In this document: one piece after another, positions 36,661 through 60,775 of the stretch
Layout of the letters: every line of letters starts with the position of its first letter
How positions within the stretch are numbered: the stretch's first letter is position 1
Source of the DNA: Minisyncoccota bacterium
GTDB taxonomy: Bacteria > Patescibacteriota > Minisyncoccia > UBA6257 > JAAZHW01
Assembly (NCBI GenBank): GCA_035402745.1
Contig: DAONDV010000001.1
Location: 19,636 to 83,635 of the forward strand
Direction of reading: 5' to 3'
DNA: 64,000 bases
The notes under the pieces: generated by a model
What the model was told of the DNA's origin: nothing
The model's input: only the letters and a program-made list of their open reading frames with translations
The model's database searches: none
Program-made: the position numbers and the translations under genes

Positions 36661-36942
36661 ATGAGTAAAACAAATTTTACGGCTGAAGAGGCCAAGCAAA
36701 TCGGCGATACTTTGGGTGTCGATTGGAAATATTTCGACGTAGAGCAGTTTCGTATGGGCTTAGACGTCGAATTGGAACACGGTACAAAAAATTCCAAAAC
36801 CAATGTCTCTAATGACGATTCCATTACTACTGGAAAAATCGCCTTGGTTCATCTTTTGGAATTTCCTGATTATTATACTCGTCTTAATAAATTAGAGGTT
36901 GAAGCCGAAGAATTTTGGGCTAAACAAGGTTATGTTGGTTAA
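36661..36942 (+). CDS. conserved hypothetical small protein (93 aa)
   Basis: ORF with a GLDVELEHG block; function unknown. Confidence 0.5.
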   Translation: MSKTNFTAEEAKQIGDTLGVDWKYFDVEQFRMGLDVELEHGTKNSKTNVSNDDSITTGKIALVHLLEFPDYYTRLNKLEVEAEEFWAKQGYVG

Positions 36943-49590: not shown

Positions 49591-50229
49591 ATGAAACAAG
49601 AAAGTAAAAGGATAAGCGATTTAAAGCCAGTTCTTTATGATGATGGCGTAATCGGAGATGCTGTTGTTTATGATGTGGAAAGAGGCAAGGATGCGCAGAA
49701 TGGATGGCGTCAAGATTTAACTGTTATTTACCCACAAATGCTCGGACGAGAAATTCCGAAGACTTTTGGGCATTATCATAAAAATAACGAGGTAGAAATT
49801 TATGAAATTTTAAGCGGTAAAATAGGATTTTTATGCCAGAAGCATTCTGTTGGTTTACCATTAGAAATAGAACAAGTTTATTTAATAGAAGCGAATAAGG
49901 GAGAAAAGATTGTAATTCCGTCTGAATTCAGTATGACTTCTATTAATTTGGGAGAAACAGAAGCTTCAATGTTCAATTGGGTAAATGATAAAATTGAAAA
50001 CGATTATAGTTTATTTATTCAAAATCACGGCGCTTGTTATTACATAGTAAGAAAAGAAGACGGAGCGTGGGAGGCAATTAAAAATAATCGTTATCAAAAA
50101 GTTCCGGAATTAATTAAATTAAAACCGAGAATCTTGCCCAAGGAATTAGAAAACTTGGAATTTTTAACAAATCAATTAAAATATAAAGATTTTTTAACAG
50201 TCGATAAATTATTTGAAAAAATAAATTAA
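49591..50229 (+). CDS. cupin-type glucose-6-phosphate isomerase-like protein (one canonical metal-ligand His apparently replaced)
   Basis: Cupin PGI signature TFGHYHKNNEVEIYE aligns with archaeal cPGI TKGHFHAKLDRAEVY. The second motif reads IPSEFSMTSINLG where cPGI has PPYWAHRTVNIG. Confidence 0.45.
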   Translation: MKQESKRISDLKPVLYDDGVIGDAVVYDVERGKDAQNGWRQDLTVIYPQMLGREIPKTFGHYHKNNEVEIYEILSGKIGFLCQKHSVGLPLEIEQVYLIEANKGEKIVIPSEFSMTSINLGETEASMFNWVNDKIENDYSLFIQNHGACYYIVRKEDGAWEAIKNNRYQKVPELIKLKPRILPKELENLEFLTNQLKYKDFLTVDKLFEKIN

Positions 50230-53965: not shown

Positions 53966-54232
53966 ATGAATGAAAAAATTATTGATAAAATAGGATGGTT
54001 TGCAGCGCTTATGGGAATAGCCATGTTTTTTTCGTACATTGATCAGATTAGATTAAATGTTTCTGGTCAAATTGGCTCTGTAATTTTACCTATTGCGACA
54101 ATGATAAATTGTATTGCTTGGTCTTCATATGGTTTCTTAAAACCTAAAAAAGATTGGCCTATGGTAGTTTCAAATGGTTTTGGGGTGATTCTGGCTGCAC
54201 TGACTGCTATAACGGCTATAATTTTTAGGTAA
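53966..54232 (+). CDS. SemiSWEET/PQ-loop family 3-TM sugar transporter
   Basis: 88 aa, 3 TM. Aligns along its length with bacterial SemiSWEET (IGWFAALMGIAMFFSYIDQI... versus IGFAAATCTTVAYAPQFIKV...). Confidence 0.65.
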   Translation: MNEKIIDKIGWFAALMGIAMFFSYIDQIRLNVSGQIGSVILPIATMINCIAWSSYGFLKPKKDWPMVVSNGFGVILAALTAITAIIFR

Positions 54233-54253
54233 AAAACGGATTGATATAAATTT

Positions 54254-54286
54254 AAAAAAATCCGCCAATTGGCGGATTTTTTTAAA
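54254..54286. terminator. bidirectional terminator (palindrome AAAAAATCCGCCAATTGGCGGATTTTTT)
   Basis: Perfect palindrome with A-run and T-run flanks, between the convergent SemiSWEET and elp3-like genes. Confidence 0.85.
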
Positions 54287-55850
54287 TATCTTTTGTCATA
54301 TACGTGCCTTCTAACTCATAACCAAGATGGCGGTAATAATCACGAACACCAATGCCGGAAATCACGGCTATCTTTTTTAATTTGAATTCTTTTTTGGCTA
54401 TCCTTTCCGCTTCAGCAACAAGTTTTTTGCCTAATCCCATATGTTGGGCGGCAATAGATTTTTTGCCAATGCTTAAAAGTTGTCCGTAAGTGTGAACTTC
54501 ACGAATTAAAGCAGCGCCTTCTAATTCTTGGATAAAAAATGGTTGTTTTTGTAAGGCGTATTCTGGAATGCGTAAACGCAATAAACTGAATAATTTTGTT
54601 CTATCTTTATTTTCCCATGATAAAAATATTTCTTTTCCATCGGATGCGCTATAGTCGATTCTAAATAATTGGATTTTCTCTTTGGGATCATATAAATCCT
54701 TTACTTCTCGTGAACGGATATCTTTGCATTTTTCTCCCTTTTTAATCATTTCTCTGTCAATCATTTCTCGCAAGTTGGATGTTTTGGATCCGGCGACAAT
54801 ACTGGTGGCCGGGATATCTCTGATGACTCTTTGCATGCGGCAATAATAGGGGATTTCCAACATTATTTTTTCCATTAATTGATTTAATGTTTTTTCCGGA
54901 TATGGTTTGTATTCTCCCTTTAAATATGATTTATAAAGTTGAGATTCTTTTAAAACTACGCACGGGTATATTTTTAATAAGTCCGGTTGGAAGTCAGGAT
55001 TTTTAAATATTTCTTTAAACATGGTCAAGTCTTTTTGAGGAGTAGAACCCATTAAATTGGGCATTAAGTGGTAGCAGATTTTAAATCCGGCTTCTTTTAA
55101 AAGTTTAGTGGCTCTAATGGATTTTTCAACGGAATGTCCGCGTTTATTTAATTTTAAAACATTATCATAGATACTTTGTATTCCCATTTCCACTCGGGTA
55201 ACACCCAATTCGCGCATCATAGTGATTTCTTCTTCATTGATAAAATCTGGGCGAGTTTCAACTGTAAGCCCGATAATACGATTATTGGTTTTCTCGTTGA
55301 GTAGTTGCGCTTGTTTTATGGTTTTACTGGTTTTTCCATTAGCGGCGTCAAAAGCGCGTTTAATAAACCATTTTCTGTATTTTGTCGGTAAAAAAGACCA
55401 CGTTCCGCCGATAACAATTAACTCAATTTTATCGGTGGGGTGTCCGCTGATTTTTAAATCTTTTATTCTGTTGGCTGTTTGCTTATAGGGGTCAAATTTA
55501 TTTAAAATGGCGCGCATAATAGCCGGCTCGTTGCTTAAATAACTCTTTGGCATCGCTTTCTCGGTGGGGCAATAAAGGCATTGACCTGGGCAAGGATAGG
55601 GTTTTGTAGAAATAGTAATAACTGCCACCCCTGATAAAGAACGCATTTTTTTTGTTTTTAATAAGGCGTACAGTTTGGCATCTTTCTTATTTTTCTTATT
55701 TTTAGTAAAATCTAAATAAGCCATTGATAGATGACGATTGGACATTGGGGATTCACCGGAGGATTTGGAGATTTCTCTTTTAAAATCATTCAAATCTTTT
55801 TCCGTATGAATCTTGGCTTTTATTAATTTTTTGATTATTTCATCTTTCAT
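54282..55850 (-). CDS. elp3: Elp3-family radical-SAM/GNAT protein (tRNA uridine-34 carboxymethyl-modification enzyme homolog)
   Basis: Radical-SAM Cys cluster KPYPCPGQCLYCP within a TIM-barrel-sized region; C-terminal GNAT-like block (HMGLGKKLVAEAERIAKKE). 522 aa, matching Elp3 size and architecture. Confidence 0.75.
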   Translation of the reverse strand: MKDEIIKKLIKAKIHTEKDLNDFKREISKSSGESPMSNRHLSMAYLDFTKNKKNKKDAKLYALLKTKKMRSLSGVAVITISTKPYPCPGQCLYCPTEKAMPKSYLSNEPAIMRAILNKFDPYKQTANRIKDLKISGHPTDKIELIVIGGTWSFLPTKYRKWFIKRAFDAANGKTSKTIKQAQLLNEKTNNRIIGLTVETRPDFINEEEITMMRELGVTRVEMGIQSIYDNVLKLNKRGHSVEKSIRATKLLKEAGFKICYHLMPNLMGSTPQKDLTMFKEIFKNPDFQPDLLKIYPCVVLKESQLYKSYLKGEYKPYPEKTLNQLMEKIMLEIPYYCRMQRVIRDIPATSIVAGSKTSNLREMIDREMIKKGEKCKDIRSREVKDLYDPKEKIQLFRIDYSASDGKEIFLSWENKDRTKLFSLLRLRIPEYALQKQPFFIQELEGAALIREVHTYGQLLSIGKKSIAAQHMGLGKKLVAEAERIAKKEFKLKKIAVISGIGVRDYYRHLGYELEGTYMTKDI

Positions 55851-55953
55851 TGTTATAAAATAATCTTACGCTGAAAAAATATTAAAGCAAGTATAGCAAT
55901 CATTTTTATAAAATAAAGATTATACGATAAATACTTATTTAAGCATTAAAATT

Positions 55954-56667
55954 ATGAGACAAAAAAGAGCTGAAAAATTATTAAGCGATGTGAAAGCTGA
56001 TTACAATAGAATTGCCGGTCACTTTTCAAAGACTCGAACTTATTTTTGGCCGGATGCCAAATTTTTATTGGATTATATAAAAGAAGATGATTTGGTTTTA
56101 GATTTGGGTTGTGGTAATGGCAGGGCTTTTCGAGAAATTAAAGAAAGGGGGGCTCAATATATTGGAGTGGATTTTTCTGAAGAATTAATCAAAGAGGCTA
56201 AAGATATTCACTCTGAAGCTGATTTTAGAGTGGCCAATGCTTTGCAGCTGCCGTTTGCCGATGACTATTTTGATAAAATTTATTGTTTTGCCGTTTTGCA
56301 TCATATCCCATCAAAGCAATTGCGTCAGGAATTTATGGAAGAAGCGCAAAGAGTTTTAAAACCGGGCGGCCTTTTAATTTTAACAGTTTGGGATTTGTGG
56401 TCAAATTCTCGCGCTAAGAAGATTTTATTTCAAAACAGATTGAAGAAATTATTTTTTGCTTCATCTTTAGGTTGGAATGATGTTTTTTATTTATGGAAAG
56501 ATGCTAATGGAAAAATACTGGTTAAACGTTATGTGCATATGTTTAAAAAAGGGGAGTTATTAAAATTGGCAAAGCGATCGGATCTGGAAATAATAAATTC
56601 CGGAAGGATTAAAAAAATAGGAAATGAAAACGGAAATATTTATTTGGTGGCGAAAAAGTCGCGTTAA
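55954..56667 (+). CDS. Trm9/ALKBH8-like class I SAM-dependent methyltransferase (candidate tRNA U34 mcm5-type methyltransferase)
   Basis: Motif I VLDLGCGNGRA. N-terminal YNRIAGHFSKTRTYFWPDAKFL, FAVLHHIP, VWDLWSN and YVHMFKKGEL line up with Trm9 blocks as recalled (YNEIAPHFSQTR..PWP, IDVGCGNGKYL, IAVVHHW, YYHLYREGEL). Confidence 0.6.
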   Translation: MRQKRAEKLLSDVKADYNRIAGHFSKTRTYFWPDAKFLLDYIKEDDLVLDLGCGNGRAFREIKERGAQYIGVDFSEELIKEAKDIHSEADFRVANALQLPFADDYFDKIYCFAVLHHIPSKQLRQEFMEEAQRVLKPGGLLILTVWDLWSNSRAKKILFQNRLKKLFFASSLGWNDVFYLWKDANGKILVKRYVHMFKKGELLKLAKRSDLEIINSGRIKKIGNENGNIYLVAKKSR

Positions 56668-56678
56668 TAATTTTAATT

Positions 56679-57008
56679 ATGAATTTTAAAGAGTATCAAG
56701 AAAAATCTCGACAAACCGCGATTTATCCCAATTTGGGGAAGAATTTTGTTTATCCATCTTTGGGTTTGGCCGGTGAAACCGGTGAAGTGATGGAAAAAAT
56801 AAAAAAATTGATTCGTGATAAAGATGGAAAAATCGATGATGAATTTAAAAAAGAAATTAGCAAGGAAATGGGCGATGTATTGTGGTATTTGGCGCAATTA
56901 GCTACGGAGTTTTCTTTATCTTTTGAGGAAATAGCAGAAGAAAATATTGAGAAGCTTTTTTCTAGAAAGGATAGGGGAATATTGCATGGAAATGGTGATA
57001 ATAGATAA
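56679..57008 (+). CDS. MazG-like nucleoside-triphosphate pyrophosphohydrolase (small all-alpha NTP-PPase)
   Basis: Sequence LGLAGETGEV...EMGDVLWYLAQLA is the MazG EExxE/D motif context. Confidence 0.7.
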   Translation: MNFKEYQEKSRQTAIYPNLGKNFVYPSLGLAGETGEVMEKIKKLIRDKDGKIDDEFKKEISKEMGDVLWYLAQLATEFSLSFEEIAEENIEKLFSRKDRGILHGNGDNR

Positions 57009-57028
57009 AAATTAGATGTTTTATTAAT

Positions 57029-57060
57029 AAATGCCGTATCGAGGGATACGGCATTTATTG
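57029..57060 (+). terminator. rho-independent terminator
   Basis: AAATGCCGTATC / GATACGGCATTT stem followed by ATTG. Confidence 0.75.
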
Positions 57061-57177: not shown

Positions 57178-59418
57178 ATGAATATGAAAAAGAGTATCAA
57201 TTTAATAATTAGTTTTGGCTTAATTACTGGAGCTATTTTATTGTCTTTTATTATGGTAAACGGTTTGAATTTCAGGCCGGTTTTTGGTATGGCTGCCGTC
57301 GCTAATGGCGCCGTTTGCCCTCCGATAACCGCTCATCCGACCGCTATCAATTTTAATCCAGAGCCAGCCAATGTGAATCAGTCTGTTAATATTAAAACTG
57401 ACCATATTTATGAATGTGATTCCGCTTCTTGTACTTGGTATTGGTCTGGTAGTGTGAATAATACAAATTCTAATGAGCCAAATGGTTCTTTCAATACAAC
57501 TTTTTCTTCAGCCGGCACAAAGAGTGTTTGTGTTGAAGTTCGTGCTGATTGGGCTGATGGTTGCGGAACCGTAAGAGTTGCTTATGGTTGTGATAATTTA
57601 TTGGTAAATAATATTGTTACTTCTGTTCCTACTGTTGACCTTTTGGTTAATCGATCAAATGGTCCTATTACCATTTCTTCTGGAGAATCTGCTACTTTGT
57701 CCTGGACTTCTACCAATGCGACTTCTTGTTTTGCTTCTGGTGATTGGTCTGGTGCTAAATCAATCTCCGGATCTCAATCAACCGGCAGACTTTCTTATAC
57801 CGAAACATATACTATAACTTGTATTGGTAATGGTGGCTCTGCTTCCGATAAAGTTACCGTCAGGGTATCTGGTTCTTCAACTCCGACTCCTTGGCCATCT
57901 TATACTCCGTATCCAACCCCAACTCCATACCCGACTTACACCCCGTATCCGACTTATACCCCTTGGCCAACTTACACTCCGTGGCCAACTTATGGCCCGA
58001 CCTGTATTCCTCCTGGAATTAATACGGTAACTATTTATCGTGACCCAACTCCGGTTTGTGCTGGACAGCAAAGCTTATTCAAGACTCAAGATATTTTTGA
58101 ATGTTACGGATATTATTGTGAATGGCGTTGGTCTGGAGATACTGGTAATATTACTAGTACAAATAATCCTAATGGAAGTTTTTACACCACTTTTTCTAAT
58201 GGAGGAACTAAAAACATCTATGTTGGCGTTTGGAAGAAGATGTATGTAGCCAATTGTGGCGAACAATATTTCCAAATTGCTACTGGTTATTTAAATTTTA
58301 GCGTTGGAGATTATTGTTCTTACACTCCGACTCCAACTCCGACCCCTACTATTACTCCGACTCCTCCGATTTGTCAGCATAATCTTTTAGCTTTGCCTTT
58401 GGCTCAAACATCTTGTGTGGCCACGGCTAATAATGGCGGAACCTGTAATGTTTCCACTTCTGATGGCTTTAGTGTTAGATATAATGTGTTAGCGGGATCA
58501 GTGAGCGCCAATACTAATATTAGCATTTTCATCTATCGCGCCAGCGATTTATCAGCGCTTAATGTTAAGGTTGGAAACTTGTCTATCATTGGCAATAAAA
58601 TTGTGCAGGTGATTGCCGAGAATGATAATTGTCAAACAGTGACTCTTTCTAAGGATGCGATAATTAATTTTACTTATCCGAATAGTTATACCTCTGGGTA
58701 TATTGAAAGTTCATTTACTAATTATCACACCCCGGTCTATGCTAATAATTGGTTTATGTTGCCGACTGCTAGAAGTACTAGCGCCAATACATTAACTTCA
58801 TTAACAAAGAACTTAGGATATTTCACAATTTATGGTCCAAGATATATTTACATCCCGACTCCGACACCGACAGCAACTGCAACTCCTAGTCCGACTCCTG
58901 AAATTTTAGGCACTACTTGTGTTTATCCGCCGGCCACACCAACCGACAATGATTTCTTGGATTCTTTATTCTTAGCTGCTTTGATTGATCAATTTAAAGG
59001 AATGAAGATCACTTGGTGTCAATTCTTAGGTATATTGAATTTATTGCTTTTAATCTTAATCTTGTGGTTCGCTTTCTATAGAAAGGAAAAACAAGCGATT
59101 AAGCAAGAAACATTAGCCTTCAACGGATCTATGGCTCAATCCAATAAGGGAAAATCCTTTTGGCAATGGTTAGCCATTCCATTCGTTGCTTGCTCCGCTT
59201 ATATTCGCGAAGCTTGGAAAAATCGTCAGGAAAAAAATAAGTTCTGGAAAGAATTTAAGAAAAATAACGTATCTTTAAATTCTCTTTTAGGGGAAATTAA
59301 AGAAACTGACGGTAAAGATATTGGCGCTTCAGTTATTCAAAGTGATTTGTCAGCCGAAACCATCAAAAAAGATGATCAGGATGATATTAAAGGATCACAA
59401 TTCGTAATCATCAAATAA
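57178..59418 (+). CDS. large cell-surface protein: signal/anchor, duplicated Cys-rich domain, Ig/PKD-like domain, Pro-Thr(-Tyr/Trp) linkers, C-terminal TM helix and basic tail
   Basis: Duplicated blocks ECDSASCTWYWSG...NGSFNTTFSSAGTK and ECYGYYCEWRWSG...NGSFYTTFSNGGTK. Ig-like ATLSWTSTNATSCFASGDWSG...YTITCIGNGGSA. PT linkers. TM FLGILNLLLLILILWFAFY. Confidence 0.7.
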   Translation: MNMKKSINLIISFGLITGAILLSFIMVNGLNFRPVFGMAAVANGAVCPPITAHPTAINFNPEPANVNQSVNIKTDHIYECDSASCTWYWSGSVNNTNSNEPNGSFNTTFSSAGTKSVCVEVRADWADGCGTVRVAYGCDNLLVNNIVTSVPTVDLLVNRSNGPITISSGESATLSWTSTNATSCFASGDWSGAKSISGSQSTGRLSYTETYTITCIGNGGSASDKVTVRVSGSSTPTPWPSYTPYPTPTPYPTYTPYPTYTPWPTYTPWPTYGPTCIPPGINTVTIYRDPTPVCAGQQSLFKTQDIFECYGYYCEWRWSGDTGNITSTNNPNGSFYTTFSNGGTKNIYVGVWKKMYVANCGEQYFQIATGYLNFSVGDYCSYTPTPTPTPTITPTPPICQHNLLALPLAQTSCVATANNGGTCNVSTSDGFSVRYNVLAGSVSANTNISIFIYRASDLSALNVKVGNLSIIGNKIVQVIAENDNCQTVTLSKDAIINFTYPNSYTSGYIESSFTNYHTPVYANNWFMLPTARSTSANTLTSLTKNLGYFTIYGPRYIYIPTPTPTATATPSPTPEILGTTCVYPPATPTDNDFLDSLFLAALIDQFKGMKITWCQFLGILNLLLLILILWFAFYRKEKQAIKQETLAFNGSMAQSNKGKSFWQWLAIPFVACSAYIREAWKNRQEKNKFWKEFKKNNVSLNSLLGEIKETDGKDIGASVIQSDLSAETIKKDDQDDIKGSQFVIIK
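57880..58005 (+). repeat. tandem degenerate ~18-nt repeats encoding a (P-T/Y/W-P-T/S-Y-T) linker; shorter PT-coding repeats at ~58321-58365 and ~58855-58905
   Basis: Repeated CCGACTTACACCCCGTAT-like units within the surface-protein gene. Confidence 0.7.
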
Positions 59419-59439: not shown

Positions 59440-59476
59440 AACCAACCGCCCCTCATAGGGGCGGTTGGTTTTTTAT
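59440..59476 (+). terminator. rho-independent terminator
   Basis: AACCAACCGCCCC / GGGGCGGTTGGTT stem followed by TTTTATC. Confidence 0.85.
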
Positions 59477-59539
59477 CAATATTACGTGGAATATACGGGG
59501 TTGTTTTTTGTTGTCAAAAATTATATACTATTATTGAAT

Positions 59540-60775
59540 ATGAGTATATTTTTTAAGGAAAAAGTTAAAACTCCCGTAGAAGAGCAATTGAATATTTTAA
59601 AAAAGGGCGTTTTTGAAATTTTGCCGGAAAATTCTTTGAGAGAAAAATTGGAAATCTCTCAAAAAGAAAATAGACCATTGCGTATTAAATTGGGAGTGGA
59701 CCCGACTTCTAAAGATTTGCATCTTGGTCATGCCGTTGTTTTAAGGAAATTAAAGCAGTTTCAAGATTTGGGTCACAAAGTAGTTTTAATTATTGGCGAT
59801 TTTACGGCTCTAATTGGAGATCCTTCCGGTCGTTCTAAGACTCGTCCCGCTCTTTCTGATAAAGAAATTAAAGAAAACGCAAAAACTTATTATATACAAG
59901 CTAAAAAGATTCTTAATCCTTCTCAGACGGAAGTGCGTTACAATAGCGAATGGTTGAAGAAGATTGATTTGAAGGTTATGTTGAAATTAATGTCTACTAT
60001 GACTGCAGCGCAAATGTTGGAACGAGAAGATTTCAAAAATCGTTTTAAATCCGGTAATGAAATTTATCTTCATGAATTTTTATATCCCTTTATGCAGGGG
60101 TTTGATTCGGTGGCGGTTAGAGCTGACATAGAAATAGGGGGCTCCGATCAAAAATTTAATTTATTAGTAGGTAGGGATTTGCAGCATTTTTATGGACAAT
60201 CAGCGCAGGCAACTTTGACCATGCCGATTCTGGAGGGTTTAGACGGAGAAATGAAGATGTCCAAATCTTTGGGTAATTATATTGGCTTAACGGAAAAACC
60301 GGAGATGATGTTTGGGAAGGTTATGTCTTTGAACGATTCTTTAATCTTGAAATATTTTGAATTATGCACTGATTTGAAAAATACGGAGATAAAAAAGATG
60401 GAAAGTGATTTGAAAAACAACGTTAATCCTCGTGATTTGAAATTGCGTTTGGCCTATGAAATCACTAGACTTTATCACGGAGAAGAAGCGGCGCGATCTG
60501 CTAAAAATGGTTTTATTAAGACTTTTAGTCAGAAGGAAGTTCCCACTGACATAGGTGTTGTTACATTGGATTTTCAGAATCAGCCTCTTTTTAAATTATT
60601 GCCTCAAATAGATAAAAGCATTAAAAGTAATTCAGCTAGTCAGAATTTGATTATGGCCGGTGGCGTTGATATTGATGATAAAAAAATTAAGGATCCATTT
60701 ATGATTTTGGAAAAAGGAAAAGAATATATTATAAAAATAGGAAAGAAATATTTTGTAAAAGTGAAGATTAAATAA
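59540..60775 (+). CDS. tyrS: tyrosyl-tRNA synthetase (with C-terminal S4-like domain)
   Basis: HIGH-like DLHLGHAV and KMSKS. Start at ATG 59540 downstream of the terminator. Confidence 0.9.
   Translation: MSIFFKEKVKTPVEEQLNILKKGVFEILPENSLREKLEISQKENRPLRIKLGVDPTSKDLHLGHAVVLRKLKQFQDLGHKVVLIIGDFTALIGDPSGRSKTRPALSDKEIKENAKTYYIQAKKILNPSQTEVRYNSEWLKKIDLKVMLKLMSTMTAAQMLEREDFKNRFKSGNEIYLHEFLYPFMQGFDSVAVRADIEIGGSDQKFNLLVGRDLQHFYGQSAQATLTMPILEGLDGEMKMSKSLGNYIGLTEKPEMMFGKVMSLNDSLILKYFELCTDLKNTEIKKMESDLKNNVNPRDLKLRLAYEITRLYHGEEAARSAKNGFIKTFSQKEVPTDIGVVTLDFQNQPLFKLLPQIDKSIKSNSASQNLIMAGGVDIDDKKIKDPFMILEKGKEYIIKIGKKYFVKVKIK

Follow-up and report, generated by a model that had tools for sequence, protein, structure and literature searches.

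A divergent Elp3 and Trm9-type gene pair in a Patescibacteria genome is a candidate two-gene module for wobble-uridine modification

The acetyl-CoA-dependent, radical S-adenosylmethionine (SAM) route by which Elp3 converts the wobble uridine of tRNA to 5-carboxymethyluridine (cm5U34) has been established for the archaeal and eukaryotic enzymes (PMC6367351 among other sources). Eukaryotes are well known to have the pathway that leads on to 5-methoxycarbonylmethyluridine (mcm5U). Among archaea it has been demonstrated in a single species, Haloferax volcanii, in which Trm9 (HVO_1032) together with Trm112 forms mcm5U from cm5U; in another, Sulfolobus solfataricus, the Elp3 and Trm9 genes cluster (PMC6144793). 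For bacteria, the literature has presented Elp3 as rare or as limited to Dehalococcoides. According to a 2020 review, xcm5U34 derivatives lacked direct evidence in bacteria (PMC7663514), and a 2026 paper states that 'numerous bacteria' have Elp3. Here we analyzed a 64-kb stretch of contig DAONDV010000001.1 (64,000 nucleotides, hereafter the window) from a Patescibacteria (Candidatus Paceibacterota) genome, in which an Elp3 gene lies head-to-head with the gene for a class I SAM-dependent methyltransferase. We propose that this pair is probably an archaeal/eukaryotic-type two-gene wobble-uridine module giving mcm5U34. We know of no eukaryote in which a Trm9 gene lies beside an Elp3 gene.

The Elp3 open reading frame (ORF) occupies positions 54282-55850 of the minus strand and encodes, by homology, a radical-SAM and KAT (GNAT) tRNA U34 carboxymethylating enzyme of 522 aa. 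The methyltransferase ORF, at 55954-56667 of the plus strand, encodes a protein of 237 aa that is predicted to be a Trm9-type tRNA (carboxymethyluridine34-5-O)-methyltransferase. A previous inspection of the window by a model that was given only its letters and translated ORFs (the sequence-only reading) had reported both ORFs and a MazG-like gene downstream of them, and had suggested a two-step, eukaryotic-type wobble-uridine pathway on the strength of the peptides CPGQCLYCP, YNRIAGHFSKTRTYFWPDAKFL, LDLGCGNGRA, FAVLHHIP and YVHMFKKGEL. The coordinates of all three genes proved correct, each of the peptides was found in the translations, and the pathway proposal was supported at the sequence level by family matches, conserved residues and the divergent adjacency of the two genes.

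The full Elp3 architecture that had been read from the minus-strand gene was borne out. TIGR01211 matched the protein end to end with 570.2 bits (cutoff 350; residues 4-521 on model positions 1-521 of 522), and the Pfam models Radical_SAM and Radical_SAM_C both scored above their cutoffs, while the Pfam GNAT model alone gave a weak match of 18 bits, under its cutoff. The closest solved structure was Methanocaldococcus infernus Elp3 (MinElp3, 6iad; 3e-137, 461 bits), with Dehalococcoides mccartyi Elp3 (DmcElp3, 5l7j) at 7e-121 and 407 bits and the eukaryotic Elp3 structures at about 360 bits. The Fe-S cysteine triad is intact, as C87/C91/C94, in a CX3CX2C spacing where MinElp3 has CX4CX2C. Residues shown by mutagenesis of MinElp3 to act in acetyl-CoA binding and hydrolysis (PMC6367351) were transferred to the window Elp3 by means of the PDB-search alignment, which placed K150, K266, Q461, H463 and Y517 on K141, K257, E451, H453 and Y505, respectively; the window protein also carries a QHxGxG motif at residues 469-474. 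Conservation was assessed among 61 near-full-length Elp3s adjoining members of the methyltransferase family. The cysteine triad, K141 and K257 were invariant in all 61, and equivalents of E451, H453 and Y505 were kept in at least 59. With these acetyl-CoA residues in place, the GNAT-like C-terminus of the sequence-only reading holds, and the protein aligns with Elp3s rather than with unrelated radical-SAM enzymes. By homology, the window gene is a complete, full-length Elp3.

Like DmcElp3, the window protein is a bacterial stand-alone Elp3 with the same radical-SAM and KAT architecture, and it shares with DmcElp3 (E386) the glutamate at the position of MinElp3 Q461. It differs in its higher score to the archaeal MinElp3, in its N-terminus and in the linker region. 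Residues 1-66 form a basic extension with 17 Lys and Arg residues, and a K/R-rich extension of 66-82 aa was present in all 61 methyltransferase-paired Elp3s, with medians of 72-82 aa among the relatives. The matching region of MinElp3 drives tRNA binding, whereas DmcElp3 is devoid of the extension and binds tRNA weakly (PMC6367351); in this respect the window Elp3 resembles the archaeal and eukaryotic proteins. The linker Zn-site cysteine triad has been described as strictly conserved in prokaryotic Elp3, in contrast to eukaryotic Elp3s, which have no such site (PMC6367351). In the window Elp3 these positions read C375-D377-S380, while 59 of the 61 relatives have Cys at all three. Loss of the site is thus specific to this lineage and resembles the eukaryotic state, and the triad is not family-defining.

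For the methyltransferase, a Methyltransf_11 match of 91.6 bits, along with matches to related models, agreed with the class I SAM methyltransferase that had been proposed. Beyond this, the curated libraries gave generic assignments only, with no NCBIfam model near its cutoff, and the database record with the identical sequence is named 'class I SAM-dependent methyltransferase [Candidatus Paceibacterota bacterium]'. This record places the host in the Patescibacteria, in keeping with a G+C content of about 35%. Source annotations across the family read 'UbiE' or 'class I SAM-dependent methyltransferase', with a single JGI entry, 'alkB family protein 8'. The family is large: at E <= 1e-30 it comprises 1,326 representatives of clusters made at 50% identity. 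In a single-sequence search of the PDB, Trm9 of Yarrowia (YlTrm9, 5cm2_Z) was the only top match near full length (residues 26-235), and a profile of 28 family members ranked the same structure first (3e-23), again near full length. We then compared the family with an alignment of 17 named fungal Trm9 proteins. HHalign returned a probability of 99.95% and an E value of 1.4e-38 over 205 columns, with query residues 11-236 on Trm9 23-230, a span that takes in the N-terminal YNxIAxHFSxTR helix and the C-terminal RYxH block and runs through the C-terminal Asn. A hidden Markov model (HMM) of the fungal proteins matched the window methyltransferase with 100.9 bits (E 8e-30, HMM positions 17-227) and nothing else in a background of 2,555 ORFs. 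This HMM also passed over another class I methyltransferase, in locus L084, which was weakly caught by a profile made from the candidate phyla radiation (CPR). The Chloroflexota branch of the family is more divergent, with fungal Trm9 HMM scores of 25-65 bits. In an AlphaFold2 model of the window protein (predicted local distance difference test score 94.8), Foldseek placed Trm9 second, with a target-normalised template modelling score of 0.84.

The profile matches support the window methyltransferase as a putative Trm9 orthologue. It has the helix, HH motif, tryptophans, RYxH strand and C-terminal Asn of the eukaryotic Trm9/ALKBH8 methyltransferase domain, and its 237 aa compare with about 230 aa in fungal Trm9; it differs from YlTrm9 in an extra helix at residues 152-166, where the latter has a short loop. 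The block-for-block likeness to Trm9 that the sequence-only reading had noted was borne out, the HHalign match reaching into the terminal blocks on both sides and the catalytic residues being kept.

Mutagenesis of Saccharomyces cerevisiae Trm9 (ScTrm9) has shown that R29, D72, H116, W145, W168, R241, Y243 and N271 are required for activity, and that H24, K31, Q149 and D270 are dispensable, alanine being tolerated at these positions (Létoquart et al., PMC4678810). We placed these residues on the bacterial proteins through a joint alignment of fungal Trm9 and 80 family members, 44 of which are labelled as CPR. Seven of the eight required residues, all but Y243, are identical in the window methyltransferase, where they are R28, D73, H117, W146, W181, R192 and N228, and those seven were kept in 37 to 44 of the 44 CPR members. 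All four dispensable positions, by contrast, vary freely in the family. ScTrm9 Y18, a residue placed at the cm5U carboxylate by modelling, aligns with Y17 of the window protein and is Tyr in 42 of the 44 CPR members; H116, Y193 and H195 are further key residues of the window protein. Conservation thus follows what matters for function in yeast, and this pattern is the strongest evidence for a shared substrate and a shared chemistry.

The linkage of the two genes was examined in two scans. In the first, which started from the methyltransferase and took one genome per species, 80 loci were collected, with labels from Patescibacteria, Chloroflexota (Anaerolineales), Fermentibacteria, Nitrosomonadaceae, Gammaproteobacteria and a few archaea; some of the 'uncultured' taxon labels are probably unreliable. 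Elp3 was present in the same locus in 67 of the 80, with three more Elp3 matches cut by a contig end. Three loci were left out for too little upstream sequence, so that Elp3 was adjacent in 70 of the 77 evaluable loci; in the other seven the flanking sequence, some 2 to 10 kb on each side, contained no Elp3. With three exceptions, the pairs were head-to-head. Two of the exceptions were tandem (L028 and L062, the latter labelled as Crenarchaeota and having the methyltransferase before Elp3), and in the third (L049) the genes lay on the same strand, 5.5 kb apart.

The second scan was independent, started from Elp3 on metagenome contigs and grouped the loci by Elp3 identity to the window protein. 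Where identity was at least 50%, the methyltransferase was head-to-head upstream in 17 of 19 loci; at 46% or lower, it was upstream in one of nine. Among the more distant Elp3s, those of L098-L105 (38-46% identity, 26-38% G+C) had no Trm9-like gene within 4 kb upstream, the upstream sequence of L100 being 293 bases only. Pairing of Elp3 with the methyltransferase is far beyond chance, and its conserved divergent arrangement backs the proposed functional link between them. The sequence-only reading had called bacterial Elp3 uncommon; within the present group of bacteria it does not seem to be so.

A search for a third partner was made by clustering all ORFs of at least 45 aa that lay, in the 80 loci, no more than 6 kb from the methyltransferase on either side. 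Apart from Elp3 and the methyltransferase, the clusters present in more than 14 loci consisted only of shadow ORFs antisense to Elp3, and no third gene family, whether Trm112, thiolation enzymes or MazG, recurred near the pair. A small protein of about 89 aa is encoded downstream of the methyltransferase in 14 of the 80 loci (e.g., L003:6862-7131(+)); in L003 its sequence matches EF-Tu domain 2 (PF03144, 35 bits) and Peptidase_U32_C. Of the spacers of 0.6-1.4 kb between Elp3 and the methyltransferase in Chloroflexota, three are explained by split or N-masked Elp3 ORFs and five hold a gene of the PAPS-reductase family. This gene, of about 250 aa and on the Elp3 strand, was found in Anaerolineales (L047:6114-6866(-), L048:9126-9968(-), L052:2103-2846(-), L057:9213-9971(-) and L058:1879-2691(-)); the L047 and L057 copies match PF01507 with 152-158 bits, and the other three are clearly similar by sequence. 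A role for it in sulfur chemistry at U34 is conceivable.

Eukaryotic and Haloferax Trm9 require Trm112 (PMC4678810, PMC6144793). As the sequence-only reading had remarked, no Trm112-like partner is evident in the window: Trm112p (PF03966) had no match among the 38 small ORFs in the gaps of the 64 kb, and no small ORF family recurred within 6 kb of the pair in the 80 genome loci. YlTrm9 contacts Trm112 through six hydrophobic-core residues. One of these interface positions, V59, is Ile, Val or Leu in all 17 fungal Trm9s and Lys or Arg in 36 of the 44 CPR members, and another, F78, is replaced by Asp, Glu, Asn or Lys in 35 of the 44. The mostly charged residues at these positions fit a solvent-exposed surface and a stand-alone enzyme, and we infer, less firmly than for the family assignment, that the bacterial methyltransferase may work without Trm112. 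Long N-termini of some Chloroflexota methyltransferases were considered as a possible Trm112 fusion and rejected as low-complexity artefacts of ORF calling, each ending at an internal Met that aligns to profile positions 1-5.

The two start codons in the window are separated by an AT-rich divergent spacer of 103 bp (55851-55953), which presumably holds the promoters of both genes. A scan with the sigma-70 consensus found no match inside the spacer, and was uninformative in that it gave 17 matches across the region against 13.3 +/- 3.6 in shuffled sequence. The shared divergent promoter region of about 100 bp in the sequence-only reading thus exists here as a spacer of that length, but it is peculiar to this genome. 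In relatives the two genes are mostly far closer, often at -2 to +30 bp, and many start codons abut or overlap. Divergent start codons overlap by 2 nt in a CATG palindrome in L002, L003 (5416-5419), L007, L012, L013, L015, L031 and L066, and abut as CATATG in L001 and L014, the starts being in each case those of the longest ORF. An arrangement of this kind leaves no intergenic promoter region, so that each promoter would lie inside the coding sequence of the partner gene or the mRNAs would be leaderless.

In the proposed mechanism, the stand-alone Elp3 would bind the anticodon stem-loop of the tRNA, aided by its basic N-terminal extension, and its KAT domain would hydrolyze acetyl-CoA. A 5'-deoxyadenosyl radical formed at the [4Fe-4S]-SAM site (C87/C91/C94) would then lead to a carboxymethyl group on C5 of U34, i.e., to cm5U34. 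The Trm9 orthologue, with SAM bound via motif I and D73, would methyl-esterify the cm5U carboxylate to give mcm5U34. On the model for the yeast and Yarrowia enzymes, R28 and H117, together with Y17 and R192, would position the carboxylate, N228 and H116 would read the uracil, and W146 would stack on the base. The head-to-head layout would couple expression of the two steps. The cm5U34 step is proposed from orthology to characterized Elp3s, and the mcm5U34 step from the conserved catalytic residues and the gene linkage.

Such a module would resemble the archaeal system in its prokaryotic stand-alone Elp3 and Trm9 orthologue, and archaea-labelled members belong to the same family. It would differ in its bacterial host, in being head-to-head and not tandem, and possibly in having lost the dependence on Trm112. 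The bacterial MnmE/MnmG system, which makes 5-carboxymethylaminomethyluridine (cmnm5U) and 5-aminomethyluridine (nm5U), has the same role in that it, too, puts an xm5-type group on C5 of the wobble uridine. Its enzymes are unrelated, being a GTPase/flavin adenine dinucleotide system that uses glycine or ammonium, in contrast to the radical-SAM Elp3 with acetyl-CoA.

Several observations weigh against mcm5U34 as the product of a Trm9 orthologue. All characterized Trm9s need Trm112, and none was found within the 64-kb window; moreover, the window methyltransferase has the uncharged L47 and Q68 at the positions of YlTrm9 V59 and F78. The PDB profile search put Trm9 ahead of PH0226 by 85.4 versus 82.5 bits, although the PH0226 alignment was confined to the core. 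The Pfam model Ubie_methyltran (PF01209) matched with 41 bits, over its gathering score of 20, on profile positions 6-150 of 233. Among the required yeast residues, Y243, whose alanine mutant retains about 10% activity (PMC4678810), is V194 in the window protein, Tyr in 24 of the 44 CPR members and Val, Ala or Cys in Chloroflexota, and the N271 equivalent is not conserved in the Chloroflexota branch of the alignment. Finally, the tRNAs expected to carry mcm5U or its 2-thio form, which in yeast are Arg-UCU, Gly-UCC, Glu, Lys and Gln, are not encoded in the window, where U34 occurs only in Val-UAC and Thr-UGU. The variable Y243 position and the missing N271 equivalent in Chloroflexota, along with an identity of only about 27% to fungal Trm9, would also suit a Trm9 relative that acts in an Elp3 pathway on another substrate or to another product, for instance on tRNAs other than those modified in eukaryotes or to some other xm5U34 derivative, with an end product other than mcm5U. 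A precedent for further branches of the pathway exists in Haloferax without Trm9, in which cm5U is undetectable and is turned into unidentified derivatives (PMC6144793). Nevertheless, all the modelled contacts to the cm5U carboxylate and uracil (Y18, R29, H115, H116, R241 and N271 in ScTrm9) are kept in the window protein, as in almost every CPR member, and the gene is very tightly linked to that for Elp3, by homology the cm5U-forming enzyme. We consider such a departure from mcm5U improbable, while granting it more weight than the explanations that follow.

Several automatic annotations would make the protein a generic small-molecule or lipid methyltransferase of the UbiE/MenG/BioC type, next to Elp3 without functional meaning. 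The Ubie_methyltran match, however, reflects the shared Rossmann core and N-terminus only, and the NCBIfam UbiE/MenG/BioC models scored far under their cutoffs (54 vs 158, 53.6 vs 327 and 53.2 vs 185; TIGR01934 54.1 vs 158.35; PRK00216 variants 38-54 vs 216-327), so that the grouping with UbiE that would have spoken against the sequence-only reading was not observed. Given also the Trm9-specific N- and C-terminal blocks, the catalytic residues and an adjacent Elp3 in 70 of 77 loci across several phyla, this explanation is strongly disfavoured. About equally improbable is an Elp3 homologue that does not modify tRNA, for example a protein acetyltransferase, another acetyltransferase or another radical-SAM enzyme, with the pair serving some other process. 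It would accord with the loss of two of the three linker Zn-site cysteines, and no xcm5U34 derivative has been directly observed in bacteria (PMC7663514). Against it, bacterial, archaeal and eukaryotic Elp3s respond specifically to tRNA and not to peptides (PMC6367351), and eukaryotic Elp3s likewise have no Zn site. All catalytic residues and the tRNA-binding extension are kept in the window Elp3, and its partner gene is a homologue of a tRNA-U34 enzyme. CmoM converts uridine 5-oxyacetic acid (cmo5U34) to its methyl ester (mcmo5U34) in the oxyacetic-acid pathway of bacteria; it, too, is of the Methyltransf_11 type and acts on a carboxyl group of a modified U34. The window methyltransferase could in principle be a CmoM-like protein instead of Trm9. 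No CmoM structure or model was present among the best 60 PDB matches of the protein or the profile, or among the 25 of 53 NCBIfam families listed; the conserved neighbour is Elp3 and not CmoA/CmoB, and the residue signature is that of Trm9. Disfavoured as it is by these results, a CmoM-like identity deserves hardly any credence.

An mcm5U34-forming Elp3 and Trm9 pair would be a known type of system in a new place. What is solid is the prediction of a function for a large family of bacterial proteins that has been mis-annotated, and not the description of a new type of system. It assigns a specific predicted function to proteins labelled only as 'class I SAM-dependent methyltransferase' or 'UbiE', and it predicts that mcm5U34, regarded as eukaryotic and archaeal and not yet reported from bacteria in the searchable literature, may be present in many uncultivated bacteria. 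Our literature search found no paper on bacterial Trm9 or CPR Elp3, most subscription journals being outside the search, so that a prior mention is possible. Elp3 in bacteria extends beyond Dehalococcoides. Most Trm9-paired bacterial Elp3s carry the N-terminal, tRNA-binding extension that is absent from the model protein DmcElp3. The pair would join other features of translation that CPR bacteria have in common with archaea and eukaryotes. The wider idea that many Patescibacteria (CPR) and Anaerolineae make mcm5U34 by Elp3 and Trm9 without Trm112, possibly replacing MnmE/MnmG, is tentative, and we regard it as doubtful in that general form. If a stand-alone, soluble Trm9 does exist, it would offer a manageable way into the Trm9-tRNA complex, which is as yet unsolved, and independence from Trm112 would make it a simpler system for the study of Trm9 catalysis and tRNA recognition.

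The MazG-like NTP (nucleoside triphosphate) pyrophosphohydrolase gene (56679-57008, plus strand, 109 aa; PF03819 43.3 bits, cutoff 22) starts 11 bp past the methyltransferase and is probably co-transcribed with it. Its position immediately downstream was as the sequence-only reading had it. MazG was found at none of the 80 genome loci of the pair; among the metagenome loci it came after the methyltransferase in just two, L081 and L083, the closest relatives, with Elp3s 87% and 94% identical to that of the window. We conclude that MazG is a lineage-specific passenger outside the conserved module. A terminator-like hairpin with a 16-bp stem on the plus strand (57025-57060), 17 bp past the MazG stop codon, suggests the end of a methyltransferase-MazG transcription unit. 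Another, at 54250-54287, has a 17-bp stem with five G-C pairs, overlaps the Elp3 stop codon and is T-rich on both sides; it probably ends the transcripts of both Elp3 (minus) and the SemiSWEET gene (53966-54232, plus). These two strong hairpins suggest that Elp3 is transcribed on its own and that the methyltransferase and MazG share one bicistronic transcript.

The trpS and tyrS genes named as flanking the cluster are both real (TIGR00233, 303 bits; TIGR00234, 362 bits), but neither belongs to the module, and other genes intervene: the SemiSWEET gene on one side and, between the pair and tyrS, a gene for a 746-aa protein (57178-59418). The latter is hydrophobic in an N-terminal segment, has repeats rich in Pro, Thr, Tyr and Trp (TPTPYPTYTPYPTYTPWPTYTPWPTYGPT, PTPTPTITPTPP), is without a Pfam match and looks like a CPR surface protein. 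For tyrS, the mechanically called ORF (59465-60775) begins at a TTG that adds about 25 hydrophobic residues. Translation from 59540 gives a protein that the tyrS model matches from residue 13 on, so that the ATG at this position is probably the true start. Elsewhere in the window, the ORF at 36661-36942 encodes a small protein with a DUF5661 match (PF18905, 86 bits), and that at 49591-50229 encodes a cupin-type glucose-6-phosphate isomerase (PF06560, 86 bits; without an NCBIfam match), a family best known from archaea.

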